NCBI RefSeq assembly: GCF_964355755.1
Contig: NC_092676.1
Coordinates: 2,051,788 to 2,115,787 of the forward strand
Direction of reading: 5' to 3'
Origin: Antedon mediterranea
Taxonomy: Eukaryota; Animalia; Echinodermata
Length of the DNA stretch: 64,000 nt
Shown: piece by piece, positions 1,378 through 56,178 of the stretch
Layout: every line of letters begins with the position of its first letter
Position numbering within the stretch: the stretch's first letter is position 1
Notes under the pieces: model-generated
The model's database searches: none
Told to the model about the DNA's origin: nothing
Seen by the model: only the letters and a program-made list of their open reading frames with translations
Translations under genes and position numbers: made by a program

Positions 1378-4300
1378 TCGTTCTACCACCAGAACTATGG
1401 AGCGAGTAAGCCTTGAACCCTTGCCGATGGTATGGCTACTGTACGTAATCAGGTTCCACTGTCTTAACCGCTCAGTCACATATATAAAGATTGAATATCA
1501 TAGGCGGATTTGAGGTGTTTGAGGGATGGGAGATGATATTTCAAAAAAATCCTGGGTCTGCCACCGGTGGTTTAATACTACAAATCCAGCCTAGTAATAT
1601 GGAGGTCATGGGTTCAAGTCTACTATTTACATATCTTATTTTTCTTTAGATCACCAATGAAATTGTAAGACAAGTGATGGAGAACAGAGGGTTTTACAAC
1701 TTAGAGAAGCCTGGTGATTTTACCAACATTGTAGACATCCAGTATATCGCTGCTATGATCCAACCTGGTGGAGGACGTAACGACATCCCTCAGCGTCTTA
1801 AACGACAGTTTAACGTCTTCAATTCCACGCTGCCTTCCAATCAGTCCATTGATAAGATCTTCTCGACTGTAGGGACAGGTCATTATTGTAAGGTGAGATG
1901 TTTTATTTATTTATTCTTTTTACTGGGTGACCTCTTCAGTAAAAAAGCTGTTCGCCCAGTACACAAAACAGTAAAATTACAAAAGAAAAAACAGACCAGA
2001 TTACAGTTTTTAACTTAAAACAGCACATTGATATTTTTTTAATTTTAATCCATGCTAGTATAAAACAAAGCAAAACAAGGAAAAAAGCTTTTACAAATAA
2101 AGGTCCCTTAAAAAAGAGATATTAATGTTTTGTATATCCAAAGGCAAATTACTGAAAAAATATTAAAATATTTTTTAATATATAGTACAGAATATTGTAT
2201 TATTATGGTTACAACCTCTAAGTTTGAGACAAAAATATTTTATTACAATCTGTATAAAATAGTAATTTAACTACTTTTATATTATAGTATTTTATTATAA
2301 TATTTATGCTAATTTCAATTTTTTGTAGGAGAGAGAATTCTCTGATGAAGTCATTGACCTTGCCGCTATGCTAGTCTCTTGTACCAGACATCTATGGCAG
2401 AGTGTTAAAGTAAAGATGTTACCAACTCCAGCAAAATTCCATTACATTTTTAATTTGAGAGATCTTTCCAGAATCTGGCAGGTATGTACATTTTTAATTG
2501 AAAACCCCTAATATTATAATGAAACAATCCATATAAATTCAAAAATTAATTAATAATTTACTCATTTTGACTGTAACATTTTCTGTATAGGGTATGTTGA
2601 ACACCAACAGTGAGGTTGTGTGTAACCAGTCAGTGTTACTAGCATTATGGAAGCATGAATGCAACAGGGTTATTGCTGATAGGTTCACCAACCAAGAAGA
2701 TAAGAATTGGTTTGAAGCACAAATCAAAAAGGTATGTAAATAGATACTTGGGACAGCGACCTCGGTTTGAGAAGTTATTGTTCCCAGAGTTATTTCATCC
2801 CTTTAGGATGACAAACATAGAAAAGTATTTTTAATTTGTTTTGTGATTTTGCTTCAAATTATGTGAAATTGTTGTTCTTTGATATCAAAACTAATTTTGA
2901 TTAACACAAAACTAACCACAATACAAAAAAGCAATCCTTGTCTCCAGACAACCTGCTTTATTTAATTGACAAGATAATTCATAATCGTTTGTGTTATTTT
3001 TAGTAATGAAGTAAGTTAGTATTATAGGTTTGGTTTCGGTTTTACAAACCTAAACTGATTTTTTAAATATGCTATTCACTAAAGTGTAACAATCTTTTTA
3101 TTGCATCATGAGGACATTTTCATGATGACACCATGTGAACCTTGTTTACAGGATTTTAATGAAATTTTAAAAGAAATTATAGCCCTGCATTTATTCTAAT
3201 ACATTTATTTATTTATGTTTTTGCTCATGAAAAGTTAAAAATATATTTTGGTCAGTATTGTAGTATCAATCAGCTGTCATAGTCATTTTGTCTCTCTGTT
3301 TTTTCTTCTTCTTGTATATTGTACCTCTTGTTTTTAATCACAGTTTCATATCTAGCATAGGAATGTTCTGTTTGTTCTGCTGCATGATCATCAATTGAAC
3401 AGTAAATCTCATTTTTTTCAATAGTGTCACCGACACTAATGGTTTCAATGTTATTTTGATAGTGCACAACAGGTACAGGTGTGTTGTGATGTTTTCTCTT
3501 TTGTTGATCATAACAACACACAACAAACACAAGTAAAACTATCAGTATGATGTTACTTGTTACCAGTATTATGGTTATTGTATTAGCTGTCATTCTTTCT
3601 GTTGGCATGTCATATTTGATATCTCGAGATGTTGTCAGTCTGTCTGTCGGCACAACATCATTACGAATAACTTGTGATGTTGTTAGTCTGTCTGTTAGCT
3701 TGGCATCTTCAATTGTGAATGTTATCTCATTAGATCTGCTCTGAACATCAGTACTCACCAGGCACTTCACAGTGTAGTTACCAGCTGGTAAATTACCAAA
3801 GCATCTTTCATCAGTTTCATTGTAATACTGATACCTAGCTTCCTCCCCATTCAAACTCCAATTATAAATTGTTCTGTCACCAGATCCACCTTCTGCAAAG
3901 CACTTAAAGCAATTCTGGTTCACATCATTATCAGGTGTTTCATATAACCTCTTAACCTCTAGCTTTAACTGAGGGTAAACCGTCAATATCAATGTGTAGC
4001 ACCCGATACCCACATATGTTCTGTTTTTAATAGAAATACAGTAGACAAATATTCCTTCTCCAGAATGAAAACCTTTTTAAAGTCAAAGTAATTTCAATGT
4101 CAGTATCTGCTTGATGAGACTGTGTGATGTGGTACTTTCCTTGGATCCAACCAATTATCACTGCATATTGGAGATTATCATATTTTCTGATGTCACATGA
4201 AATAGATACTTCTTCTCCTTCAATCATGTCTTTCATATTGTCACAATGAAGTTTTACATACCGTGGTTGGCGTCTGCTCGGTGTAACATCTGATGAAGGA

Positions 4301-7300
4301 ACTAAATATTGTAAACTATAATCATCTTGACATGTTCGTATTCCTGTTTGTTGACCAAAAGAAATTAAGCATACGCAGTTCAAATTTAAATCTTTTCCCA
4401 ACAAATCAAGAGTTTCCTGTTTTTCATTTGATGATTTAATTGTCACAGATGACTTCATGTATGATTGGTAATACAACTTTCTGTCAAATTGTACCAACTG
4501 TCTTGAAACTCCATATCTGAATATCAACAAACAAGTCACCAACAAGTTGAAGAATTTCAAAGTCATCTTTAAAAACCTCTCTGTATTGTATATTCATTTC
4601 TTGCATTTTGTAACCTCTTGTTTTCAATCACAGTGTCAGAGCTAACATATACATTTTCAGCTTGTTCTGTTATGTTATCATCAACTGAACAGTAAATCTC
4701 ATTTTCTGTCATTATGTTTGAAACGTCAGTAGTTTTACCAATGCTAATGGTGTCATTATTACTTTGATAGTGTACAGCAGGTACAGATGTCTTCTGCAGT
4801 TTCCTCTTCTGTTGTTCATAACAACACACAACAAACACAAGTAACACTATCAGTATGACATTACTTGTTAACGATATTTTAGTTATCTTATTAGCTGTCA
4901 TGGTTTCTGTTGGATCGTCATATTTGATATCTCGAGATGTTGTCGGTCTATCTGTTGGCATGCCATCTTTAATTGTGAATTCTATCTCATCAGATCTGTT
5001 CTGAACATCAGTACTCACCAGACACTTAACAGTGTAGTTACCAGCTGGTAGATTACCAAAGCATCTTTTATCAGTTTCATTGTAATACTGATACTTGAAT
5101 TCCTCTCCATTCAAACTCCAATTATAAATTGTTCTGTCACCAGATCTACCTTCTGCATAGCACTTGAAGCAATTCTGGTTCACATCAACTTCAGGTGTCT
5201 CACATAGCTTCATAACATCTACCTTTAATTGAGGGTGAACCAGCAATTCCAATGTGTAGCACTCAATACTCACATATGAACCTTGGTTATTTGAAAAACA
5301 GTAGAAAAATATTCCTTCTCCGGAATGAAATCCTTTTACAGTCTGATTAATGGTTGTAGTGTTGTCAGTATCTAGAAGATGAAATTGTGTGATATGGTGC
5401 TGTCTTTGGATCCAGCCAATTGTGATATCATATTGGATGTTGTCATATTTCCTGATATCACATGACATGTTTACTTCCTCTCCTTCAGTTATGTCTTTCA
5501 TATCTTTGTCACAGTAAAGTTTTACATACAGTGGTTGATGTGGGCTCCATGTGACCTCTGATGAAGGTACCACATAGTGTGAATTATAATCATCTTGGCA
5601 TGTGTATATTCCTTTTTCTTGACCAAAAGAAATAAAAAGTTGGCATTTAACTATTAAATCTTTTCCCGGCAATACAACTGTTTTTTGTTCATTTGATGGA
5701 ATAATTGTCACAGGTTGTGGCTTAGTAGACCAGTAATAAAAACCTCTTTCAAATTGTACCAACTCTCTTGAAGCTCCATGTCTGAATATTAATAAACAGA
5801 TCACCAACAGGTTACAGAATTTCAAAGTCATCTTTAAAACCTCTCAGTATTGTTTGTGAAAATATACCATTCTAGTTCCCGATGTGGCCAGCGATAAGAC
5901 TGAATTGATGTTTGTATTTTTATAGGTTTATAATATTGTAATATTTAGTATTTTGAGTTTTGGTTTTTGTTGCTACTGTAATCTCGAAACTAATTTTGTG
6001 AAGAATAATATTTACATGAGCTAACATAGTCATTCTGTCTCTCTGTTCTCATTTCCTGCATTTTGTAACCTCTTGTTTTCAATCACAGTGTCACAGCTAA
6101 CATAGTCAGTCTGTTCTGTTGACTCTCTGTTCTCATTTCTTGCATTTTGTAACCTTTTGTTTTCAATCACAGTGTCAAAGGTAACATAAGAGTCCCAAGT
6201 TTATTCTTTTGTATGATCATCAATTGAACAGTAAAGCTCATTCTTTTCAACCGTTTTTGAAACATTCAAAGTGCCACCAACACTAATTGTGTCATTATTA
6301 CTTTGATAGTGCACAACAGGTACAGGTGTGTTGTGATGTTTCCTCTTTTGTTGTTCATAACAACACACAACACACACAAGTAAAACTATCAGTATGATGT
6401 TACTTGTTGCCAGTATTAGGATTATTGTATTAGCTGTCATGGTTTCTGTTGTCAAGACACATTTGATATCTTGAGATGTTGTCATTCTGTCTCTTGTCAT
6501 GACATCTTCAATTGTGAATGTTATCTCATCAGATCTGTTCTGAACATCAGTACTCACCAGACATTTAACAGTGTAGTTACCAGCTGGTAAATTACTAAAG
6601 CATCTTTCATCGGGTTCATTGTAATTCTTGAATTCCTCTCCATTCAAATTCCAATTATAAATTCTCTTGTCACCAGAGCCACCGTCTGCATAATAACACT
6701 TGAAGCAGTTCTGGTTCACATCAACTTTACATGTTTCATATAACCTTTTAACCTCTACCTTTAATTGAGGGTGAACCAGCAATATCAGTGTGTAGCACCA
6801 AACTGCTTTATAATTAAGTGAAATACAGTAGAAAAATATTCCTTCTCCGGAATGAAATCCTTTTACAGTCTGATTAATTGTTGTAATGTTGTCAGTATCT
6901 AGAAGATGAAATTGTGTGATGTAGTTTTTTCCTTGGATCCAACCAATTGTGATGTCATATTGAATTTGGTCATATTTCCTGATGTCACATGAAATGTTTA
7001 CTTCCTCTCCTTCAATGATGTCTTTCATGTTGTCACAGTAAAGTTTTACATAGAATGATTGACTTCTGCTCTGTGTAACATTTGAGGAAAGAACCAAGTA
7101 TTGTAAATTATCATCATCTTGACATGTGTATATTCCATTTTGTTGATCAAAAGAAATAAAAAGTGGGCATTTAACTATGAAATCTTTTCCTGGAAATACA
7201 AGCGTGTTCTGTTTACTTGATGGTGTAATTGTCACAGGTTGTAGCTTAGTGTGTGATTGGTAATCAAAACCTCTGTCAAATTGTACCAACTCTCTTGAAG

Positions 7301-10300
7301 ATCCATGTCTGAATATCAACAAGCAAGTCATCACCAACAGATTAAAGAATTTTAAAGTCATCTTTAGCATCCTCTCTGTATTTTTTGTGAAAATCCAATC
7401 TCTGAGACTGAAGTGATGTTTGTAGTTGTATAGGTTTATAATACATGGAAACACAAAAGGAAATACAGTATTTAGTATCTGAGTTTTGTTTTTGTTGCTG
7501 CTGTAATATCGAAACTAATTTTGTGAAGAATAATATTTACATGAGCTAACACAGTCAGTCTGTCTCTCTGTTCTAATTTCTTGCATTTTGTAACCTTTTG
7601 TTTTCAATCACAATGTCAAAGGTGACATAGGAGTGCTATGTTTATTCTGCTGTATGATTGCATTTATTTGTTTGAAAAAAACATTTAAGACTTCTAAAAA
7701 GTCAATGATGCTCTATATCTCGCAAGCCAGAAGTCAGTTGAATAGTAAATCTCATTCTTTTCAATATCAATGTGTAGCACCCAATACCCACATATGTTCT
7801 GTTTTTAATAGAAATACAGTAGACAAATATTCCTTCTCCAGAATGAAAACCTTTTAAAGTCAAAGTAATTTCAATGTCAGTATCTGCTTGATGAGACTGT
7901 GTAATGTTTTACTTTCCTTGGATCCAACCAATTGTCACTGCATATTGATGATGTCATATTTTCTGATGTCACATGAAATATTTACTTCCTCTCCTGTAAT
8001 GATGTCTTTCCTAATATTGTTACAGTAAAGGTACTGTGACTGGCGTGTGCTCATTGTAACATCTTGTGTAGAAACCAAATATTATATCATCTTGACATGT
8101 GTGTATTCTTGTTTGTTGACCAAAAGAAATTAAGCATAAGCATTTCAAATTAAATCTTTTCCCACCAAATCACAAGTTTCCTCTTTTTCATTTGATAAAA
8201 TAAAGTGTCACTGATAGTGATAGTGTAAGATTGATAATAAAACTTTCTTTCAAATTGTACTGTCGTAAAGCTTTGAATATCAACAAGCAGATCACCAACA
8301 GGTTAAAGACCTCTCTGTATTGTTTGTGAAAATTCATCCTCTGTTTGTATTTGTATATGTTTATAATATTTAAAATAAACAAAAGAAAATAATTAGTATT
8401 TGAGTTTTGGTTTTTGTTGCTAATAGGCATATATCAAAACTAATTTTGCGAAAGTAAGTAGGTAATATTTATTGCTTTTTGCTTGCTTTCTTTTCTATTT
8501 CTTGCATTTTGTAACCTTTTGTTTCAAATCACAGTGTCAAAGGTAACATAGGAGTCCCATGTTTATTCATCTGTATGATCATCAATTGAACAGTAAACCT
8601 CATGTTCTGCATTAATTTGCTGAACATCAGAAGTGTTACCAACACTAATTGTGTCAATGTTACTTTGATAGTGCACAACTGGTACAGGTGTGTTGTGATG
8701 TTTCCTCTTTTGTTGTTCATAACAACACACAACAAACACAAGTAAAACTATCAGTATGATGTTACTTGTTACTATTATGGTTATCTTATTGGCCTTCTTT
8801 GTAGCTGTTGTCATGTCATCTTTAATTGTAAATGCTATCTCATCAGATCTGTTTTGAACATCAGTACTCACCAGACACTTCACAGTGTATTCACCAGCTG
8901 TTAAATTACCAAAGCACCTTTCAACAGTTTCATAGAAACGATACTGGAATTCCTCTCCTCTCAAACTCCAATTAAAAATCTTTTTACCAGATCCACCTTC
9001 TGCATAACACTTGAAGCAATTCTGGTTCACATCAACTTCATATACCCTTGTGATCTTTACCATTAATTGTGGGTGAACCGCCATAACCAATTGATAGCAA
9101 TACAGTAGAAAAACATCCCTTGTCCAGAATGAAAACATTTAAGAGTCTGAATAATTGTAATGTCAGTATCCGTATGATGAGTCTGTATAATGTTGTGATT
9201 TCCTTGAACCCAAATAGTTGTCACTTCATATTGGATGTTGTCATCTTTTCTGATCAAGTCACATGAAATGTGTACTTCCTCGCCTTCAACGATGTCCCTC
9301 ATACCGTCACAATAGAGGTTTACAAGTTCTGGTTGAGATGTGGTATATGTCACACCCGGCAATGTATAAATAGTATGTTGAAAATTATCATCAAATTGAC
9401 ATAAGTATAGTCCGTGATTAGAACCAAACAATGAAAAGTGGACATTTAACTGTTTCATATTTTCCTGAACGATTAACACTCTTTCGTTTCATTACTGGTG
9501 TGATTGCAATGTTTACCTTACTTGTTGATGAGTACTGAAATTTGTAACTAAATTTTACCAAACTTCTTGAAGCTCCTCCATGTCTGAATATCAACAAGCA
9601 AGTCATCACCAACAGATTAACAATTTTTAAAGTCATCTTTAAAACCTCTCTGTATTGTTTGTGAAAACACACCCTTCTAGTTCCAGATGTGGCCAGCAAT
9701 AAGACTGAATTGATGTTTCTATTTTTATAGGTTTATAATATTGTAATATTTAGTATTTTGAGTTTTGGTTTTTGTTGCTACTGTAATATCGAAACTAATT
9801 TTGTGAAGAATAATATCTACATGAGCTAACATGGTCATTCTGTCTCTCTGTTCTCATTTCTTGCATTTTGTAACCTTTTGTTTCCAATCACAGTGTCAAA
9901 GGTGACATAAGAGTGCTATGTTTATTCTGCTGTATGATTATCAATTGAACAGTAAAGCTCATTCTTTTCAACAGTTTGCAAAGCATTCAAAGTGTCACCA
10001 ACATTAATTGTATCATTATTACTTTGATAGTGCACAACAGGTACAGGTGTGTTGTGATGTTTCCTCTTTTGTTGTTCATAACAACACACAACAAACATGA
10101 GTAAAACTATCAGTATCATGTTACTTGTTACCAGTATTATAGTTATTGTATTAACTGTCATGGTTTCTGTTGTTGTGTAATGTTTTCCTTGGATTCAACC
10201 AATTGCGATGTCATATTGGATGTTGTCATTTTTCCTGATGTCACATGACATGTTTACTTCCTCTCCTTCAATCATGTCTTTCATATTGTCACAGTAAAGT

Positions 10301-13300
10301 TTTACATACCGTGGTTGATGTGGGCTCCATGTAACATCTGATGAAGGTACCACATAGTGTGAATTATCATCATCGTGGCATGTGTATATTCCTTTTTCTT
10401 GAACAAAAGAAATAAAAAGTTGGCATTTGACTTTGAAATCTTTTAATGGCATTACAAGCGTTTTCTGTTTATTTGATGGTGTAATTGTCACAGGTTGTAG
10501 CTTAGTGTATGATTGGTAATAAAAACCTCGGTCAAATTGTACCAACTGTCATGAAGCTCCATGTCTGAATATCAACAAGCAAGTCACCACCAACAGGTTA
10601 AAGAATTTCAAAGTCATCTTTAGAAACCTCTCTGTATTGTTTGTGAAAATCCAAATCCTCAGTTCCTGATGTGGCCAGAGACTAAAGTGATGTTTGTATT
10701 TGTATAGTTTTATAATATAGTAACACAAAAAATAATATTTAGTATTTGTGTTTTGTTTTTGTTGCTACTGTAATATCGAAACTAATTTTGTGAAGAATAA
10801 TATTTACATGAGCTAACATAGTCAGTCTGTCTCTCTTTTTTTCATTGCATTTTGTAACATTTTGTTTCCAATCACAGTGTCAAGGGTAACATAGGAGTGC
10901 CATGTTTATTCTGCTGTATGATCATCAATTGAACAGTAAATCTCATTTTTTTCAATGGTTTGCAAAACATTCAAAGTGTCACCAACACTAATTGTGTCAT
11001 TGTTTCTTTGATAGTGCACAACAGGTACAGGTGTGTTGTGATGTTTCCTCTTTTGTTGTTCATGACAACACACAATAAACACAAGTAAAACTATCAGTAT
11101 GATGTTACTTGTTACTAGTATTATGATTATTGTATTAGCTGTCATGATTTCTGTTGTCAAGACACATTTGATATCTTGAGATGTTGTCATTCTGTCTCTT
11201 GTCATAACATCTTCAATTGTGAATGTTATCTCATCAGATCTGTTCTGAACATCAGTACTCACCAGACACTTAACAGTGTAGTTACCAGCTGGTAAATTAC
11301 TAAAGCATCTTTCATCGGGTTCATTGTAATTCTTGAATTCCTCTCCATTCAAATTCCAATTATAAATTCTCTTGTCACCAGAGCCACCGTCTGCATAATA
11401 ACACTTGAAGCAGTTCTGGTTCACATCAACTTTACATGTTTCATATAACCTTTTAACCTCTACCTTTAATTGAGGGTGAACCAGCAATATCAGTGTGTAG
11501 CACCAAACTGCTTTATAATTAAGTGAAATACAGTAGAAAAATATTCCTTCTCCGCCGGAATGAAATCCTTTTACAGTCTGATTAATTGTTGTAGTGTTGT
11601 CAGTATCTAGAAGATGAAATTGTGTGATGTAGTTTTTTCCTTGGATCCAACCAATTGTGATGTCATATTGAATTTGGTCATATTTCCTGATGTCACATGA
11701 AATGTTTACTTCCTCTCCTTCAATGATGTCTTTCATGTTGTCACAGTAAAGTTTTACATACAGTGGTTGATGTGGGCTCCATGTGACCTCTGATGAAGGT
11801 ACCACATAGTGTGAATTATAATCATCTTGGCATGTGTATATTCCTTTTTCTTGACCAAAAGAAATAAAAAGTGGGCATTTAACTATGAAATCTTTTCCTG
11901 GAAATACAAGCGTGTTCTGTTTACTTGATGGTGTAATTGTCACAGGTTGTAGCTTAGTGTGTGATTGGTAATCAAAACCTCTGTCAAATTGTACCAACTC
12001 TCTTGAAGATCCATGTCTGAATATCAACAAGCAAGTCATCACCAACAGATTAAAGAATTTTAAAGTCATCTTTAGCATCCTCTCTGTATTTTTTGTGAAA
12101 ATCCAATCTCTGAGACTGAAGTGATTTTTGTATTTGTATAGGTTTATAATACATGGAAACACAAAAGGAAATACAGTATTTAGTATCTGAGTTTTGTTTT
12201 TGTTGCTGCTGTAATATCGAAACTAATTTTGTGAAGAATAATATTTACATGAGCTAACACAGTCAGTCTGTCTCTCTGTTCTAATTTCTTGCATTTTGTA
12301 ACCTTTTGTTTTCAATCACAATGTCAAAGGTGACATAGGAGTGCTATGTTTATTCTGCTGTATGATTGCATTTATTTGTTTGAAAAAAACATTTAAGACT
12401 TCTAAAAAGTCAATGATGCTCTATATCTCGCAAGCCAGAAGTCAGTTGAATAGTAAATCTCATTCTTTTCAATATCAATGTGTAGCACCCAATACCCACA
12501 TATGTTCTGTTTTTAATAGAAATACAGTAGACAAATATTCCTTCTCCAGAATGAAAACCTTTTAAAGTCAAAGTAATTTCAATGTCAGTATCTGCTTGAT
12601 GAGACTGTGTAATGTTTTACTTTCCTTGGATCCAACCAATTGTCACTGCATATTGATGATGTCATATTTTCTGATGTCACATGAAATATTTACTTCCTCT
12701 CCTGTAATGATGTCTTTCCTAATATTGTTACAGTAAAGGTACTGTGACTGGCGTGTGCTCATTGTAACATCTTGTGTAGAAACCAAATATTATTATCATC
12801 TTGACATGTGTGTATTCTTGTTTGTTGACCAAAAGAAATTAAGCATAAGCATTTCAAATTAAATCTTTTCCCAACAAATCACAAGTTTCCTCTTTTTTAT
12901 TTGATAAAGTAAAGTGTCACTGATAGTGATAGTGTAAGATTGATAATAAAACTTTCTTTCAAATTGTACTGTCGTAAAGATTTGAATATCAACAAGCAGA
13001 TCACCAACAGGTTAAAGACCTCTCTGTATTGTTTGTGAAAATTCATCCTCTGTTTGTATTTGTATATGTTTATAATATTTAAAATAAACAAAAGAAAATA
13101 ATTAGTATTTGAGTTTTGGTTTTTGTTGCTAATAGGCATATCAAAACTAATTTTGCGAAAGTAAGTAGGTAATATTTATTGCTTTTTGCTTGCTTTCTTT
13201 TCTATTTCTTGCATTTTGTAACCTTTTGTTTCAAATCACAGTGTCAAAGGTAACATAGGAGTCCCATGTTTATTCATCTGTATGATCATCAATTGAACAG

Positions 13301-16300
13301 TAAACCTCATGTTCTGCATTAATTTGCTGAACATCAGAAGTGTCACCAACACTAATTGTGTCAATGTTACTTTGATAGTGCACAACTGGTACAGGTGTGT
13401 TGTGATGTTTCCTCTTTTGTTGTTCATAATAACACACAACAAACACAAGTAAAACTATCAGTATGATGTTACTTGTTACTATTATGGTTATCTTATTGGC
13501 CTTCTTTGTAGCTGTTGTCATGTCATCTTTAATTGTAAATGCTATCTCATCAGATCTGTTCTGAACATCAGTACTCACCAGACACTTGACAGTGTATTCA
13601 CCAGCTGTTAAATTACCAAAGTTTCATAGAAACGATACTGGAATTCCTCTCCTCTCAAACTCCAATTAAAAATCTTTTTACCAGATCCACCTTCTGCAAA
13701 CACTTGAAGCAATTCTGGTTCACATCAACTTCATATACCCTTGTGATCTTTACCATTAATTGTGGGTGAACCGCCATAACCAATTGATAGCAATACAGTA
13801 GAAAAACATCCCTTGTCCAGAATGAAAACATTTAAGAGTCTGAATAATTGTAATGTCAGTATCCGTATGATGAGTCTGTATAATGTTGTGATTTCCTTGA
13901 ACCCAAATAGTTGTCACTTCATATTGGATGTTGTCATCTTTTCTGATCAAGTCACATGAAATGTGTACTTCCTCGCCTTCAACGATGTCTCTCATACCGT
14001 CACAATAGAGTTTTACAAGTTCTGGTTGAGATTTGGTCCATGTTACACCTGATTTATAAATAGTATATTGAGTTTTATCATCAAATTGACATTAGTATAT
14101 TCCTTGATTAGAACCAAACGAAATGAAAAGTGGACATTTAACTGTTTCATATTTTCCGTAACAAATAACACTCTGTTGTTTACTTGATGGTGTGATTGCA
14201 ATGTTTACCTTACTTGTTAATGAGTACTAAAACTTTAAATCAAATATTACCAAACTTCTTGAAGCTCCTCCATGTCCGAATATCAACAAGCATGTCATCA
14301 CCAACAGATTAACAATTTTTGAAGTCATCTTTAAAAACCTTTCTGTATTGTTTGTGAAAATCCACCTTTCTAGTTCCTGATGTGGCCAGAGACTGAAGTG
14401 ATGTTTGTATTTCTATAGGTTTATAATATGAAATAAACACAAAAGAAAATAATTAGTATTTGAGTTTTGGTTTTTGTTGCTAATGGGCTATTTTGTGAAA
14501 TTAAGTAGGTAATATTTATGGCTTTTCAAGAAATGTACAATTTATAAAATAGCATAATATTTGAATGAAAGTAAAAGGATTGAATAATATACACATTTAA
14601 CATTGAGAAATTAAACATGGAAAGCAGGGGATAATAAGAAAGAACAATATTTAAATCAGTAAGTGTCTATAAAAACTCCAATAAAGTACAAGTTTAAACT
14701 GTAATCTATTGTTCTTAAAGGTTGCAGAGGCAGACCTTGGCACAGCATTAGCAGAGCAAATCCCTGCTGAACCGTTCTTTGTTGACTTTCTACGAGATGC
14801 TCCTGAAATAACAGGTTAACTTTTTTGTTAAAATTGTTTGTTTATGCCAAATCTATTTCATGGTGTTGCCATCGCTATATTTATATATTAACATAGATTA
14901 ATAGTAGTTTACTAACTAACATTTTTCATGGCTTTTTACATATAAATGTTGTATACTTTTTTTTAGATTGTTTTGAAAATTATCATCTATCTGTAATGAA
15001 ATAAACTCATGCAGGATTTGGACCCACAATTGTGTAACTTACTTATATCTTGGTATCTTTGGTTTTGACAAGAAAAATACAAAATTTCTGCATTGTTTAC
15101 AATAAAAATTACAATAAAAATGCAATATTCAAATATTAAAATTACATCAAAAATTTAAAATGTATGTATAAAAAAAACAATCGATTTCACGATAAAATTA
15201 CAATATAATATAAAAATGACATCAAAAAGTTCAATTTAAATATTAAAAAAACCTTCGTTGAGAGACGTAAAATATCTAAGTATATAAAGTGACATCAAAA
15301 GAGTAACGATAAAAATATTTAAACAAAGTATCATTGATCATAGACAGTTTTGGTTATTTAGTAATCTGGTTTTACAAACGTATATTTACTAAAAATGTTA
15401 CTTATTATATTTTGTAGGTGATGAACCCGATGATGCTGACCTAGATGCACCTAAGATATATGAACCAATAGAATCCTATCAACAACTAAACGACAGGCTG
15501 ATAGGGTTCATGGCTCAGTACAATGAAACAGTGAGAGGGGGCAAGATGGATTTGGTCTTCTTTAAGGTAATACATATGAGAGTTATCAACCTGTAGCCGT
15601 ATTCACCAATCACACTTAAGTGAGATATATTAAGTGTTTATATATATAATATTAAGTATTTCACTTGAACTCAATAAATACTTAAGTATTTCTCTTAAAT
15701 TGTATTCACTTTACGTAGAAGATTTTTTTTCTTAGCTTAAGTATGAATGGTGAATTCAGCCAATGAGTTGTACTAGAAATTACTAAAGGTTACAGCTTAT
15801 TTAATAACAGTATGTTAGTAGAGTACACAGTACAGTATACCTGTGAAACGAGGGGCAATATGTGTTTTAAAAACCCCTTTCCTGCAATTTTGGACGTTTT
15901 TTGGAAAATAATACATATATATCACTTTAAAAACATTAAACCATGTCATTCCTTGTCTTAAATGTACGTTTTATGGTAAATTATGATAAAAAGTGAGAAA
16001 CAATGCACTACCTAAGTAGCTCGCGGCGATCGACCTCTCGTGGACGGTCTTAGGCCTAGCCTAGCTAGGCTTAGTTTTGTAGGCCTAGCTGGTAAACATC
16101 GATAACGTACGAACATCGTACGCTAGCTATATACCTAGCCTGACGTTGTATAGTTGCTGCATTAATTGTCTTTCTATTTTTGCCAGACTCCGTTGATACA
16201 AATTGGGGAAAACCCGGTATTTTCGCTGAAAAGTTAGGAGTCTTCCATTTGTTTTGGCTTCACGATCGATCGAAAAGTGGGCGAATTACAGGTGAAAAAC

Positions 16301-19300
16301 AAAAATATCAATCCGCGCGCAATGCATTTTGGGATTTACAGCGGGCCGCTATAAATATTAGAATCGATTTATTTTTCACATTTTTAACCGTTTAAAGACG
16401 AAAAAAGTTATCGCAATAGGACAATATAGTATTATTTTTACATTAAATATAGTTTGTGATCTTAAATTAGATCTAAAAAACGTAGGGAATGGGGCTTTAA
16501 TGTGACACTTATGCTGGATTCCTAAAGCCTGTTTTCCTGTCGACGTTATTCACGTTGATCGTTAACAGTTCAACGACGATCGTTTGAAAACGATCAAGTT
16601 GAAATGATAACGATAGCGTGTACTTTTTCCTGTAAATCGTTAACATTTCAATGTTTTTTTATGTAGAAGATCGCCGATTATTGTTAACCATGGCGTCAAC
16701 TAACGTCGACAGGAAAACAGTCTTAAGGTGTCCTCTTATAGTGACTCTACTGTTTTTTTTAAATCGATAAGAAAATATGTTCAAGTTTATTATTTATTTT
16801 ATTTGCTATAAACTATACCATGGGTTAATTTGTTTTAGGTAATTAGGTAATACAGTATTAGGGTAACAATAATGGTTCACTTGGTTGTAGTAGGTGGTAA
16901 TGGTACACAGGTAATACCTCCCTGGTTACCAGTACCTGTAAACATTGGTTATGGTTTGGTGGTGGTATATGGTATTGGGTGCTTGTTGTGGCAGTGGTGC
17001 TAATATCAAATACATATTATACATTTATATTTTCACTAGGATGCTATGGTGCATTTAGTTAAGATATCTAGAATAATCCGTACGCCACGTGGTAATGCTC
17101 TGCTAGTTGGTGTTGGTGGTTCTGGTAAGCAGAGCCTAACAAGATTAGCCTCATTCATTGCTGGATACAAGAGCTTTCAAATAACACTGACAAGGTTTGT
17201 CTTTTAATTATTGTATTTAAACTGGAATAAATTCAGTTCCAAATGTTTTACTCCCCTTATCTTATATCTTATTTTGCAATACATTTTAACAATACAAACT
17301 TACGGTACTAATTTGTCTGACAACAATGATAGGGACTAAGATTCAATTCAATTCAATCAACTTTATTGTCAAACTCATGAATGGCTTGAAACTTTGGCTG
17401 AAACACACATTAAAAGATGGACCAATACACCAGGGTACCTCAACATATGCACTGGTTTCTTTGTGCGCACAAGCCAGATATGTACACTGGACCTCCAGTT
17501 TTAAGTCCTTTCAAGAAGACTTATTCTACCACCAGAACTATGAGGAGGGACTTGAACCGGTGCTATGGCTCGGCTATTCAACCCCACAAACTTATTCAAG
17601 TTTACTTGACTTACCAAGTTTCCATATTTTGAAATAAAAAAATATGTCTCCAAGGTGAATTAATATATGGAAATAAAAATATATTGTTTTTTTTTAATTT
17701 TTACTCTCATTTTCTTAGATCGTATAATGTTGCCAACTTGATGGATGATCTAAAGCATCTTTATCGTACGGCAGGTCAACAAGGTCAAGGAATAACGTTC
17801 ATCTTTACCGATAATGAGATTAAAGATGAAGGATTCTTGGAGTATATGAACAACGTACTAGCATCAGGAGAAGTAAATAAACAAAACTGAAATTTTGTCC
17901 ACCAAACATTTAGCTTTAAAAACTTCCTTATTTTGTCTAATTATTGGTATTTATTGTTTTTAATAAATAATACTTATTGTCATCTTTCTTTTCATAATTA
18001 ATTTCTTCTTATTTCAGGTTTCAAATTTATTTGCCCGTGATGAAATAGATGAGATCACAGGTGAGCTGATACCAGTTATGAAGAAAGAGTTTCCAAGACG
18101 ACCGCCGACCAATGAGAATCTTTACGAGTATTTCTTGAGCAGAGTCCGCGCCAACCTACATGTGGTTTTGTGCTTCTCACCTGTAAGTCAATCTCTGGAT
18201 GTTTTGCTTTGTTAAAATCTTGAAGCTGATAAGGTTATCACTATGATTTCCACAAATTAATAGAACTGTAGCTAGATGGTTAACATGCTTGCCTTCCAAT
18301 CCCAAGGTCCAGGGTTCAATCCTGACCTAGTGCTTTTTTTAAAAATGGTAGTTCTAGAGTGTTGACATGATTTGAACCGAGGACCCAAGAATTCTTGTTA
18401 ACGACTAAGCTACAGCGCCACTATTATAGATTTATGCTCAGGGTTGACAGTCACATCAATATCAGTATACGAAAGCCACAATTATTATCATGATGAATAA
18501 AGAAAAACAAATTATTTTTTATTTTATTTTCTTATCATGTCAGGTTGGTGAAAAGTTCCGTAGCCGCTCGTTAAAGTTTCCCGGTCTGATCTCCGGCTGT
18601 ACAATGGATTGGTTCAGCCGATGGCCAAAAGACGCCCTTATAGCAGTGTCGCAACATTTCCTGTCAAGTTTTGAGATTGTTTGCACAGATACTGTCAAAC
18701 AGAGTGTTGTTAACACTATGGGTGTCTTCCAGGTAATGTAAAACAAATTTTCAGTACACCAATGCTGTGTCTACACTATCAAACTAGTTTGACAAAAAAA
18801 TGTGATATGCCCAAATTTGGTAGTGATATGGCCAAATATGGTGGTGATATGACATCATCATGTCCATATATGGACACATCACATTTTTTTGTCAAATAAA
18901 GTTGGATAGTGTAGACAGAGCTTTAGACCATTTTCAGCTACAATCAATCAATCAATCGTAATTTCATTTTTCAATTTAGGACATGGTTGCGGAATCTTGC
19001 ATCGATTATTTTCAGCGTTTCCGGCGACAGATGCATGTCACTCCAAAGTCGTACTTATCGTTTATCGACAGCTTCACTCAGGTGTATGCTGAGAAGCTCA
19101 AAGCTATTGGTATCCTTGCTAATAGGATGCAAACTGGTAAGCATTATTTTTAAATTGCTTAATTTAAACTTGCGGTTATAGGAAAAACTTTCCAACACAC
19201 AAGAAATGTTTAAAAGCTATGGCCAACACCTTTAGGGGTTCTAAACCAGAATTATATGTATGTATGTACGAGTAAGAGATATTAAACTAGATCATCTGTA

Positions 19301-22300
19301 TGTATGTACGAGTAAGAGATATTAAACTAGATCGTCTGTATGTATGTATGAGTAAGAGATATTAAACTAGATCATCTGTATGTATGTATGAGTAAGAGAT
19401 ATTAAACTAGATCATCTGTATGTATGTACGAGTAAGAGATATTAAACTAGATCATCTGTATGTATGTATGAGTAAGAGATATTAAACTAGATCATCTGTA
19501 TGTATGTATGAGTAAGAGATATTAAACTAGATCATCTGTATGTATGTATGAGTAAGAGATATTAAACTAGATCATCTGTATGTATGTATGAGTAAGAGAT
19601 ATTAAACTAGATCGTCTGTATGTATGTACGAGTAAGAGATATTAAACTAGATCATCTGTATGTATGTATGAGTAAGAGATATTAAACTAGATCATCTGTA
19701 TGTATGTACGAGTAAGAGATATTAAACTAGATCATCTGTATGTATGTATGAGTAAGAGATATTAAACTAGATCATCTGTATGTATGTATGAGTAGGAGAT
19801 ATTAAACTAGATCATCTGTATGTATGTACAAGTAAGAGATATTAAACTAGATCATCTGTATGTATGTATGAGTAAGAGATATTAAACTAGATCATCTGTA
19901 TGTATGTACGAGTAAGAGATATTAAACTAGATCATCTGTATGTATGTACAAGTAAGAGATATTAAACTAGATCGTCTGTATGTATGTATGAGTAAGAGAT
20001 ATTAAACTAGATCGTCTGTATGTATGTATGAGTAAGAGATATTAAACTAGATCATCTGTATGTATGTATGAGTAAGAGATATTAAACTAGATCATCTGTA
20101 TGTATGTATGAGTAAGAGATATTAAACTAGATCGTCTGTATGTATGTACAAGTAAGAGATATTAAACTAGATCGTCTGTATGTATGTACGAGTAAGAGAT
20201 ATTAAACTAGATCATCTGTATGTATGTATGAGTAAGAGATATTAAACTAGATCATCTGTATGTATGTATGAGTAAGAGATATTAAACTAGATCATCTGTA
20301 TGTATGTATGAGTAAGAGATATTAAACTAGATCGTCTGTATGTATGTATGAGTAAGAGATATTAAACTAGATCGTCTGTATGTATGTACAAGTAAGAGAT
20401 ATTAAACTAGATCATCTGTATGTATGTACAAGTAAGAGATATTAAACTAGATCATCTGTATGTATGTACAAGTAAGAGATATTAAACTAGATCATCTGTA
20501 TGTATGTATGAGTAAGAGATATTAAACTAGATCGTCTGTATGTATGTACAAGTAAGAGATATTAAACTAGATCATCTGTATGTATGTATGAGTAAGAGAT
20601 ATTAAACTAGATCGTCTGTATGTATGTACAAGTAAGAGATATTAAACTAGATCATCTGTATGTATGTACAAGTAAGAGATATTAAACTAGATCATCTGTA
20701 TGTATGTATGAGTAAGAGATATTAAACTCGATCATCTGTATGTATGTATGAGTAAGAGATATTAAACTAGATCGTCTGTATGTATGTACAAGTAAGAGAT
20801 ATTAAACTAAATCGTCTGTATGTATGTACAAGTAAGAGATATTAAACTAGATCATCTGTATGTATGTATGAGTAAGAGATATTAAACTAGATCATCTGTA
20901 TGTATGTACGAGTAAGAGATATTAAACTAGATCATCTGTATGTATGTACAAGTAAGAGATATTAAACTAGATCATCTGTATGTATGTATGAGTAAGAGAT
21001 ATTAAACTAGATCATCTGTATGTATGTACGAGTAAGAGATATTAAACTAGATCATCTGTATGTATGTATGAGTAAGAGATATTAAACAAGATCATCTGTA
21101 TGTATGTACGAGTAAGAGATATTAAACTAGATCATCTGTATGTATGTACGAGTAAGAGATATTAAACTAGATCGTCTGTATGTTGTATGTATGTTATTCT
21201 TGGTCCTCAAGTCTAACTGAAAACTAAGGAAATTTAGATTGAGCTCTCCACAGACACGGCAGCCAGCAGTACTGTAACAGCGCCTACCAGATGAGCACAC
21301 CAGGAGACGATCCCCTACTTTTTCGAATAGTGTACCAAGTTCTTGTTCAGTACAGTTTCGTTCCTCCCACTAATGCCAGTCGCATCCAAGAGGTAGTCTT
21401 CTCTAGCATCTAAATTTATGCTGGGTCCTACTGTTGAAAGCCTTCCTTGACTGGGTTAGCTTCTTTAGCTTGACTAGGATCGCACTGAAGGAGATTGCTT
21501 AATTAATGTTGTCTTTTTTTAGGTCTTGCTAAATTAGTGGAAGCTACAAGTTCTGTAAATGAACTGAGCAAAGAACTGGCTGTGAAAGAGAAAGAACTGG
21601 CAGTGGCATCCAAGAAGGCAGATGCTGTATTGGCAGAGGTCACTGTTAGTGCTCAGGCCGCTGAAAAGGTCAAGGCACAAGTCCAAAAAGTCAAAGATAA
21701 AGCCCAGGCTATTGTAGATGAGATTGAGGTGAATACACAATTCAATTTTTGTCAATAAAACTTTTGATACTTTTTTGAAATTCTGTCTATAATGTTTAAA
21801 TTTTTAAAAACATGGGAATTTTTTTTAAATTGAGAATTTTACAATTTTGTTTAGGCTGACAAAGCTATAGCTACCGAGAAGCTAGAAGCAGCTAAGCCAG
21901 CATTAAAAGAAGCCGATGCAGCCCTCAACACCATCAAGCCAACCCACATCTCAACAGTGCGTAAGTTAGCTAAGCCACCTCATCTCATCATGAGGATTAT
22001 GGACTGTGTGCTGTTACTGTTCCAGCATAAGATGGACTCGCCTTCGTTAGACCCAGAGAAGCCTTGCATGAAGCCATGCTGGGGGGAATCATTGAAACTT
22101 ATGGGAGGCAGCAACTTCTTGCAAGGACTTCTCTCTTTTCCAAAGGTAACAATTCAATTTAATTCTTTATTAATACATAAAAAAAAATATGATAAAATTA
22201 ACTTCAAGAAGGTAAACAACAAAACAAACAACATCAAAACTTTCAAAAACAATTATTTCTCCTGTTAACATAATTATTAACCGGCAAAATCATGCACTGC

Positions 22301-34639: not shown

Positions 34640-48163
<13,524 letters not shown>

Positions 48164-55593: not shown

Positions 55594-56178
55594 GGAAGAA
55601 TGCAAATACCTCGGTAGTAACTTGGACACAGAAAAAGACATTAAAAGAAGAAAATCACTAGCAGCTATGGCATATAACAAGCTGAAGTCGTCGCTAGAAC
55701 ACAAAACGATGTCTATAGACGTGAAATCCCGTTTGTTTGACGCATACATAGCAAGTATTTTCTTATATAACAGTGAACTCTGGGTACTAAACAAAAAATT
55801 ACAAGAGAGGAAAATCACAGGAAAATGTTGCGAAAGATGATAGATATTAAATTAACAGATAGAGTGTGTAACACGAAAATATACGAGATAACAAAACAAG
55901 AAGAATGGAGTAAAAGAATTAAACGAAGGAGACTAAAATGGTATGGACACATAATTAGATTACCAGATGATACCCCAATCAAACAAACAATGAAGGAAAC
56001 TAACAGGAAAGTAAAACGACCCGTAGGAAGACCAAGAAATAACTGGATGAATCAAATAAAGAAAGACTTACAAGGACTAGTAAACACTAACACAATAACA
56101 AACCATCCTGCCATAAACAGAAACAAATTGTGGAAAGCGTAATGTCGGAAGACGGAAAACGTTAACAACGTAACAACG
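55594..56178 (+). mobile_element. 5'-truncated non-LTR retrotransposon (RTE-like), frameshifted RT C-terminus
   Basis: KYLGS...DIKRR...FLYNSELW...MLRKM...RRLKWYGHIIR...RPVGRPRNNW; short tandem tail (taacaacg)2; 8-bp TSD TATCAATG at 55586-55593 and 56179-56186. Confidence 0.88.

Follow-up and report, generated by a model that had tools for sequence, protein, structure and literature searches.

The stretch of DNA analyzed here, hereafter the window, comprises 64,000 nucleotides of the crinoid Antedon mediterranea (contig NC_092676.1, positions 2,051,788 to 2,115,787 of the forward strand). Within it, nine homologous minus-strand single-exon units (U1 to U9), recognized by alignment, fill one intron of an axonemal dynein heavy chain gene and encode proteins with three ectodomain segments (D1 to D3), a transmembrane (TM) helix and a cytoplasmic tail. 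They apparently form an Antedon-restricted, previously undescribed family of receptor-like genes, single-exon, self-promoted and intron-nested. With somewhat better than even confidence, and judging from sequence, we lean toward a crinoid-restricted, germline-encoded family of self/non-self recognition receptors, i.e., clustered genes for type I membrane proteins evolving by birth and death; an immune role of the array genes is what we infer on the same basis.

The window covers the 3' part of the dynein gene, the Pfam domains AAA_7, MT and Dynein_C lying on neighbouring exons. A first-pass annotation had reported nine antisense intronless copies in a single outsized dynein intron, and this was confirmed: the intron measures 11,989 bp, against 109-2,386 bp for the remaining dynein introns of the exon chain (six low-scoring spurious exons of the chain, five of them within the array, were ignored). 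Three units contain intact open reading frames (ORFs), at 5831-4569 (420 aa), 7361-6201 (386 aa) and 12069-10906 (387 aa), while U1, U2, U4, U5 and U6 are pseudogenes, broken by frameshifts, stop codons or large deletions. A block of 3.7 kb is present twice, as U1-U3 and as U5-U7. No tandem repeat was detected within the array by Tandem Repeats Finder (TRF), and no Rfam family was found. The features of the intron, including TATA boxes and initiators (Inr), are the following.

2591-2731 (+): dynein heavy chain exon 5' of the array; GT donor, joins 14721-14814 in frame.
2732-14720 (+): dynein intron containing the array, 11,989 bp.
3270-4566 (-): U9, type C, long tail, about 431 aa; one extra base near 4074; own TATA-Inr lost through fusion to U8.
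4569-5932 (-): U8, type B, intact, 420 aa, long tail; ATG 5831, TATA 5932, Inr A+1 5901; stop 2 nt before the U9 ATG.
6019-6200 (-): stretch behind the U7 stop; two 84-nt tyrosine-module repeats still in open frame and a third relic.
6095-9783 (no strand): three-unit block, 95.4% identical to 10811-14485.
6201-7440 (-): U7, type B, intact, 386 aa, short tail; ATG 7361, TATA 7440, Inr A+1 7409.
7545-8365 (-, ends approximate): U6, type C pseudogene, near copy of U2.
8563-9737 (-): U5, type A pseudogene; ATG 9636; deletions of 2 and 34 nt; U8-like promoter, TATA 9737.
9922-10714 (-): U4, type B pseudogene; ATG 10617; two internal stops; 477-nt deletion; TATA and TTAGT initiator variant.
10906-12148 (-): U3, type B, intact, 387 aa, short tail; ATG 12069, TATA 12148, Inr A+1 12117.
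11761-11855 (-): gene-conversion tract in D1 of U3, identical to U8 at 24 consecutive informative sites (permutation p 5e-5).
12253-13075 (-, ends approximate): U2, type C pseudogene; deletions have removed the start codon, the Inr and most of D3/TM.
13270-14425 (-): U1, type A pseudogene; ATG 14328; deletions of 34, 1 and 13 nt; TATA 14425, Inr A+1 14394.
14721-14814 (+): dynein exon 3' of the array; in-frame GT..AG join with 2591-2731.

The cassette that makes up a complete unit spans about 1.4 kb and consists of a TATA-Inr promoter, a 48-70-nt leader and one ORF, with spacers of about 200 nt between units. The promoter TATAAA-N23-TCAGT, in which the initiator A lies 31 nt from the first T, is found ahead of U1, U3, U5, U7 and U8 (five of the nine units). 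This spacing is canonical for a TATA-Inr pair. The initiator reads TTAGT in U4 and is lost in U2 and U6. The pattern was absent from 105,180 nt outside the array and occurred 0.0007 times per 200 nt in shuffled sequence; being homologous, its five copies represent a single event. Between type A and type B units, identity is 85-98% in the core promoter and 60-65% in D1. As five units carry their own TATA-Inr, the copies spread as DNA together with their promoter. Retroposition of the copies, suggested in the first pass, was therefore not borne out, the more so as no poly(A) tract follows U9 and no target-site or flanking direct repeat was seen; terminal repeats are likewise missing at the array ends. 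The coding region itself is intronless, with one ORF from signal peptide to tail in U3, U7 and U8, and the founder of the array may or may not have been retroposed. The U8 stop codon TAA is followed after 2 nt by the U9 ATG (4564-4600, minus strand). Since U9 has also lost its promoter, it is readable only from that of U8. U8 in turn lacks an AATAAA, so the two genes may share one transcript.

The proteins have the layout that had been read from the sequence at the outset: they carry a signal-peptide-like N-terminus, 4-7 N-glycosylation sequons, a Thr-rich stalk, a hydrophobic helix ending in CC and an NxxY/YxxI-V motif in the tail. In U8, the signal-peptide-like stretch spans residues 1-21, D1 22-100, D2 101-198, D3 199-289, and the TM helix about 316-337, between stalk and tail. 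The polar residues Thr-Ser-Asn inside the TM hydrophobic stretch, seen in all seven units examined for them (U1, U3, U4, U5, U7, U8 and U9; not in the full-length relative P0002 described below), could promote helix pairing. D1, D2 and D3 show no detectable relatedness to one another (hhalign probability <1%). From the motifs PGKDLIVKC and GIYTC, one might guess that D1 is a shrunken immunoglobulin (Ig) domain.

AlphaFold and Foldseek were used to examine the Ig-like fold proposed earlier, and two Ig-like beta-sandwiches are indeed predicted, with generic structural matches. The D2-D3 model is all beta, with a mean predicted local distance difference test score (pLDDT) of 73.7 and D2 blocks at 76-88; in the ectodomain model, D1 lies mostly below 50 (residues 17-70). 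D2 is modelled as a Greek-key sandwich of about 100 residues with seven strands of 5+ residues. Its pin, Cys124 in strand B, Trp140 in C and Cys178 in F (U8 numbering), with Gly117 at -7, is conserved in the relatives P0001 and P0002, and its cysteines may form a disulfide. Because there are seven main strands and 53 residues between the cysteines, D2 appears C2/I-like rather than V-set: the nine-strand C'/C''/D frame of a V-set domain was not found in it, and no V-set family heads the VIA lists. The residues before the F-strand cysteine read E-G-I-F-F-Y-C, against the pattern D-x-G-x-Y-x-C, with Glu at -6, Phe at -2 and the Gly displaced by one. Foldseek placed CD22 D1-3 at rank 1 (E 3.8e-5, 19% identity), followed by transglutaminases, Fn3-like modules and KIR2DL2. 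A Siglec assignment was rejected although CD22 ranks first, as the F strand of D2 lacks an Arg; Arg in the F strand is a Siglec feature. Against Ig-like sandwiches, VIA scores D2 at Z 8-9.6. The VIA list is flat, its best entry having Z 9.6 (root-mean-square deviation, rmsd, 3.0; 93 aligned residues) and ICAM-1 Z 8.2 (rmsd 3.0, 95 aligned). CD58 (Z 7.4, rmsd 7.2, 147 residues) and CD48 (Z 7.1, rmsd 7.5, 155 residues) also match the model. Six of ten family members gave a weak match of D3 to Pfam Y_Y_Y (best E 0.0018, below the cut-off), which suggests an Fn3-like fold. We thus have a fold for D2-D3 that is Ig-like in the models yet not diagnostic, with the sequence favouring the Ig superfamily (IgSF) for D2; D2 is predicted to be a C2/I-like IgSF-type sandwich, and D3 an Fn3- or C2-like one on a Thr-rich stalk.

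The seven tails that retain the region all share an acidic tyrosine core, E-[IVL]-Y-C-S-[IV]. The strict pattern of the Botryllus FcoR proteins, [E/D][V/I]Yxx[V/I/L], is found in five of the seven, and in all seven if Leu is allowed at -1. The tail of P0002 carries NECYG and DDYVT at similar rank, a resemblance judged by eye. Tails are of two lengths. A CAA-to-TAA change common to U1-U7 cuts the tail before an 84-nt tyrosine module (28 residues), which is repeated behind U7; U8 and U9 translate the module and retain further tyrosines, while tails are short in seven of the nine units. Past the TAA, the frame is open in the intact U3 and U7 and closed in all five pseudogenes. Readthrough of the TAA was considered unlikely, as U3 and U7 differ at 5 of the first 21 residues past the stop; TAA-A is also a poor readthrough context. 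The shared change creates an AATAAA overlapping the stop codon (13274, 12354, 10910, 9926, 8567, 7646 and 6205, minus strand); U3 and U7 have no other canonical poly(A) signal ahead of the promoter that follows.

Divergence among the copies is uneven along the protein. The ratio of non-synonymous to synonymous rates (dN/dS, omega), estimated from U8, U7 and U9 (U3 was left out as a near copy of U7), was 0.59 overall (95% confidence interval 0.46-0.76), with 0.81 for D1, 0.48 for D2+D3, 0.13 for the signal peptide and 0.63 for the tail. With a transition/transversion parameter kappa of 2, which is close to the observed 17:21 count of transitions to transversions, the values were 0.71 (0.57-0.90), 1.00, 0.59, 0.18 and 0.78. 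The N-terminal segment had been called the most divergent part, which agrees with a dN of 0.31 in D1 vs 0.14 in D2+D3; the tail had been called conserved, which does not, as its dN is 0.19 vs 0.10 in D3. Indels relative to U8 are in frame in 7 of 7 cases for U3, 6 of 6 for U7 and 7 of 8 for U9, several of them being shared, and a neutral ORF outlasted 0.1 substitutions per site in only 0.9% of 1,500 simulated runs. Together, these two results indicate that the genes were kept open while diverging. U3 equals U7 save for the D1 tract that is identical to U8, and the promoter tree is discordant with the D1 and D2 trees. The birth-and-death evolution proposed initially is supported by the five pseudogenes and by D1 evolving fastest in the per-domain comparison (0.81-1.00 vs 0.48-0.59).

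Contigs from four runs were used to examine the assembly: X1 and X3 come from one sample, which may be that of the window, X5 from another sample and study with the same species label, and X6 carries a second species label. X5 contains DNA, since one of its contigs runs from the dynein exon into the intron. Two stretches are bridged by its contigs, one from the unique intron sequence into the tail of U9 (3141-3482), the other across the junction of U9 with U8 (4306-4623). The concern raised at the outset that the array might be an artefact of one assembly is thereby removed. The initial tally of three intact copies, one frameshifted copy and five pseudogenes stands as a count; the frameshift itself is probably a homopolymer assembly error and U9 probably intact, because the extra base near 4074 is left out in the sole covering contig of X1 and X3 (the X1 piece is 268 bp long, with no other letter differing). 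Against this, the X5 contigs over about 4074 do not show the gap. X5 also has an extra base at 3322, in agreement with the tail frame of the paralogs. Under the second species label, 491 X6 contigs match along the array at 88% or more, and none of those listed shows the same-intron location.

How many units there are is less certain, and the true number may lie between six and nine. Contig depth over the array is far above that of the flanks, which is no measure of copy number and was not used as such. In X1, 236 of 629 contigs are below 95% identity to every one of the nine units, and many matching-sample contigs differ from all nine units or combine parts of several; this suggests that a divergent second haplotype or additional copies exist. 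The count could thus be inflated, U1-U3 and U5-U7 being two haplotypes placed in tandem; this would concern the copy number and not the existence of the array. The 95.4% identity of the blocks resembles the 22 differences per 450 bp between a matching-sample contig and the dynein flank, and the U4-U5 junction is spanned by none of the contigs listed. However, the blocks are 99-100% identical over D2-D3 vs 87-90% over D1, and U5 has a U8-type promoter (support 97/96) before a U1-type coding region, as expected at a duplication breakpoint. With U4, U8 and U9 moreover unique and outside the block pair, we regard the haplotype explanation as quite improbable.

Homologs were sought in proteins, structures, viruses and metagenomes. 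Phmmer and profile searches returned two relatives only, both uncharacterised proteins of Antedon mediterranea: XP_071957072.1 (P0001; 249 aa, 65% identity) and the full-length XP_071950092.1 (P0002; 499 aa, 37%), which keeps the cysteines and the overall layout. They sit on two different contigs, of 30.6 and 41.4 Mb, which means that the family is not confined to a single site. The family resemblance of P0001 breaks off precisely at a donor-like site, CTG|GTGAGT, which lies within D3 in all six units keeping D3 (13578, 11262, 8871, 6557, 5018 and 3758, minus strand). A search of 1.84 billion representatives added three weak matches summed over repeats; for the same reason, P0004 and P0005 were dropped as relatives. 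The best non-crinoid match, weak and aligned to D3-stalk-TM, is an IgSF repeat protein (Pfam V-set, I-set and 2B4; E 6.5e-10 summed over 10 stretches, hhalign probability 27%). Searches for short relatives of 30-62 residues gave none, and the 63-874 range returned the same two Antedon proteins; the PDB sequence search gave nothing below E 0.39. By tests that detect close relatives only, viral contigs contained no match to the pattern, tblastn confirmed none of 31 metagenome stretches as a relative, and neither U8 nor U3 had a PHROGs family. BFVD yielded generic sandwiches only (TMq up to 0.41). The expectation of a lineage-specific family is thus supported, with no match found to a named family, a virus or a metagenome sequence. 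Hydractinia Alr and Botryllus FcoR were absent among the homology-search matches, no direct profile comparison having been made. No description of the family or of its single-exon Ig-like form was found in full-text searches, which covered the main text of largely open-access papers. In the part of a 2025 review of invertebrate IgSF covered by a term search, echinoderms are named once and crinoids never.

The array can nevertheless be compared with published systems, considered here through excerpts of the papers cited. Intronlessness had been thought unusual for such loci, and is less so: most sea urchin Toll-like receptors (TLRs) are single-exon, one subfamily forms large tandem arrays and 67 of 253 are pseudogenes (PMC3367398). 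These echinoderm multigene receptors resemble the array in being single-exon and tandem with many pseudogenes; they differ in having a leucine-rich repeat ectodomain, a TIR tail and homology across animals (PMC3367398), where the array has predicted Ig-like folds, a tyrosine tail and no homolog outside Antedon. [quoted passage not shown] In contrast to the array units, however, FcoR genes have many exons, with mention made of an intron 12, and undergo alternative splicing; some have a canonical ITIM (immunoreceptor tyrosine-based inhibitory motif) or a hemITAM (half of an immunoreceptor tyrosine-based activation motif, ITAM), and they pair with fester genes (PMC11507803). This array contains no partner family. 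No sequence similarity between FcoR and the array proteins was found.

Hydractinia Alr shares with the array clustered divergent Ig domains, an Fn3-like membrane-proximal fold, a TM helix and a tyrosine tail; 12 of its 41 loci are pseudogenes, and domains are shuffled between neighbours, domain 1 being the most variable (bioRxiv 10.1101/2022.03.04.482883). Alr genes nonetheless have one exon per domain, a V-set domain 1 without the B-F cysteines and many ITAM tails (10.1101/2022.03.04.482883), whereas the array has one exon, a kept Cys-Trp-Cys, no V-set frame and no ITAM. In gene structure and motifs, the array therefore falls outside both Alr and FcoR. SpTransformer (Sp185/333) genes are likewise small echinoderm immune genes in clusters; they have undergone segmental duplication, gene conversion has been proposed for them, and their allelic clusters do not match. 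They are flanked by GA/GAT repeats and, according to a heading, include no pseudogenes (PMC5103432), unlike the array, which has no tandem repeat and mostly dead copies. Vertebrate IgSF receptors of the CD2/SLAM, CD22 and KIR type have a two-sandwich ectodomain as in the array, and CD22 and KIR2DL2 are among the Foldseek matches. The array differs from them by the absence of ITIM, ITAM and ITSM (immunoreceptor tyrosine-based switch motif), by the lack of a V-set frame and by its single exon, and the matches do not exceed those to non-IgSF sandwiches. The comparison with KIR, LILR and NITR made earlier is consequently loose: clustered receptor-like genes are present, the canonical ITIM/ITAM is missing. 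The pattern is thus familiar from sea urchin TLRs; the family and its single-exon Ig-like form were not met with in the literature examined.

The units have multiplied by tandem and block duplication, swap segments by gene conversion and decay into pseudogenes. If the array encodes recognition receptors, the variable D1, displayed on D2, would bind a changing ligand, on either a pathogen or the surface of a conspecific cell. Once receptors cluster, a Src-family kinase could phosphorylate the tyrosine of E-[IVL]-Y-C-S-[IV], an SH2 protein would be recruited, and the long tails of U8 and U9 vs the short ones may give two signalling strengths. Several observations weigh against this. Transglutaminase, RbmA, C3, Vps26 and Fn3 domains tie with or exceed ICAM-1 structurally, and Pfam Ig_3 reached 13.8 bits, below the curated cut-off of 30, in one of ten members. 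None of four tails has a canonical ITIM, ITAM or ITSM, and none of seven has a hemITAM at the conserved tyrosine. The overall omega interval reaches 1 at kappa 3-4, and omega in D1 is not significantly above 1. Five of the nine units are dead, and U9 has lost its promoter. The U8 leader contains an ATG (about 5845-5870, minus strand) in strong context, in frame and closed by a U8-specific TGA, and an X5 contig with a depth of 4.9 has a stop at codon 23 of U9 (4500). Finally, in contigs close to U8 and U9, which may be alleles or close paralogs, 14 of 16 coding differences are non-synonymous (two of 18 difference rows were dropped, one non-coding and one behind a frame difference). About three quarters are expected to be so under neutrality, and no current purifying selection is thus shown by these contigs.

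One alternative is a once functional cassette family that is now decaying at this locus and spreads or persists by unequal crossing-over under little selection, possibly with a viral or mobile-element origin. The five broken units, the 14 of 16 non-synonymous differences including the U9 nonsense change, the promoterless U9 and the virus-like compactness with short spacers all speak for it. Against it stand the preference for in-frame indels and the omega values of less than 1 for the signal peptide and D2+D3, as well as the full-length relative that keeps cysteines and layout at 37% identity and the lack of terminal repeats at the array ends, and we judge it unlikely. To a similar degree, we doubt that the genes encode gamete or ciliated-cell recognition or adhesion proteins whose expression would follow the opening of the axonemal dynein locus, with D1 tracking a gamete partner. 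Nesting in an axonemal dynein gene, compact TATA-Inr cassettes and the fast change of the outermost segment would suit such a role, and reproductive surface proteins often evolve fast. But the units have their own promoters on the opposite strand, their relatives lie on different contigs, and the conserved tail tyrosine motif with five pseudogenes fits immune-type turnover better.

Still less probable, in our view, are non-immune identity or adhesion molecules acting in neural wiring or arm regeneration, homophilic like clustered protocadherins or chelicerate sDscam, in which the GTGAGT donor of D3 could serve to join units to other 3' ends by splicing. The tandem arrangement of promoter-bearing cassettes, the donor-like site in every D3-bearing unit and the divergence of P0001 exactly there are in line with this. 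Yet every ORF continues past the site into a TM helix and tail of its own, the site codes for Val-Ser where P0002 has Val-Thr, and P0001, which has no signal peptide, looks to us like a patched gene model. Rapid copy death and restriction to one genus, moreover, are unlike conserved wiring receptors. The recognition-receptor reading thus remains the one we favour. Its most far-reaching form, which we put forward tentatively and consider rather doubtful, is a polymorphic, crinoid-specific self/non-self system of one-exon cassettes, the first IgSF-like candidate for such a system in echinoderms, in which, exon shuffling being unavailable, conversion of D1 tracts between neighbours would make new specificities, the stop before the 28-residue tyrosine module would tune signalling and U8-U9 would possibly be one transcript. 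If true, most copies would be invisible to standard annotation.

Elsewhere in the window, a Runx gene (35048-48160, plus strand; Runt E 1e-50, C-terminal WRPY) directly follows the dynein gene. One dynein intron is filled by a 40-bp array of 49 copies (19242-21189), and a related 21-bp minisatellite occurs in three further dynein introns (18802, 24319 and 27397). Just upstream of U1, a short relic of a dispersed repeat (14575-14634) is marked by many loose contig ends in all four runs. Two plus-strand ORFs, 42833-43249 (139 aa) and 55777-56139 (121 aa), have no Pfam match; the latter somewhat resembles the C-terminal end of a long interspersed nuclear element (LINE) reverse transcriptase. The dynein intron itself was likely merely a landing site for the array.

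The recognition receptors of invertebrates are specific to their lineages and difficult to detect through homology, and little has been written on crinoid immunity. Should expression or selection fail, the array would be only a decaying local duplication. Otherwise, the clustered Ig and tyrosine-tail design, multi-exon in Hydractinia and Botryllus, would have arisen again as single-exon cassettes in a housekeeping intron, and the family would give concrete candidates, which come in three ectodomain types and two tail lengths, with a D1 open to conversion and with promoters already mapped.

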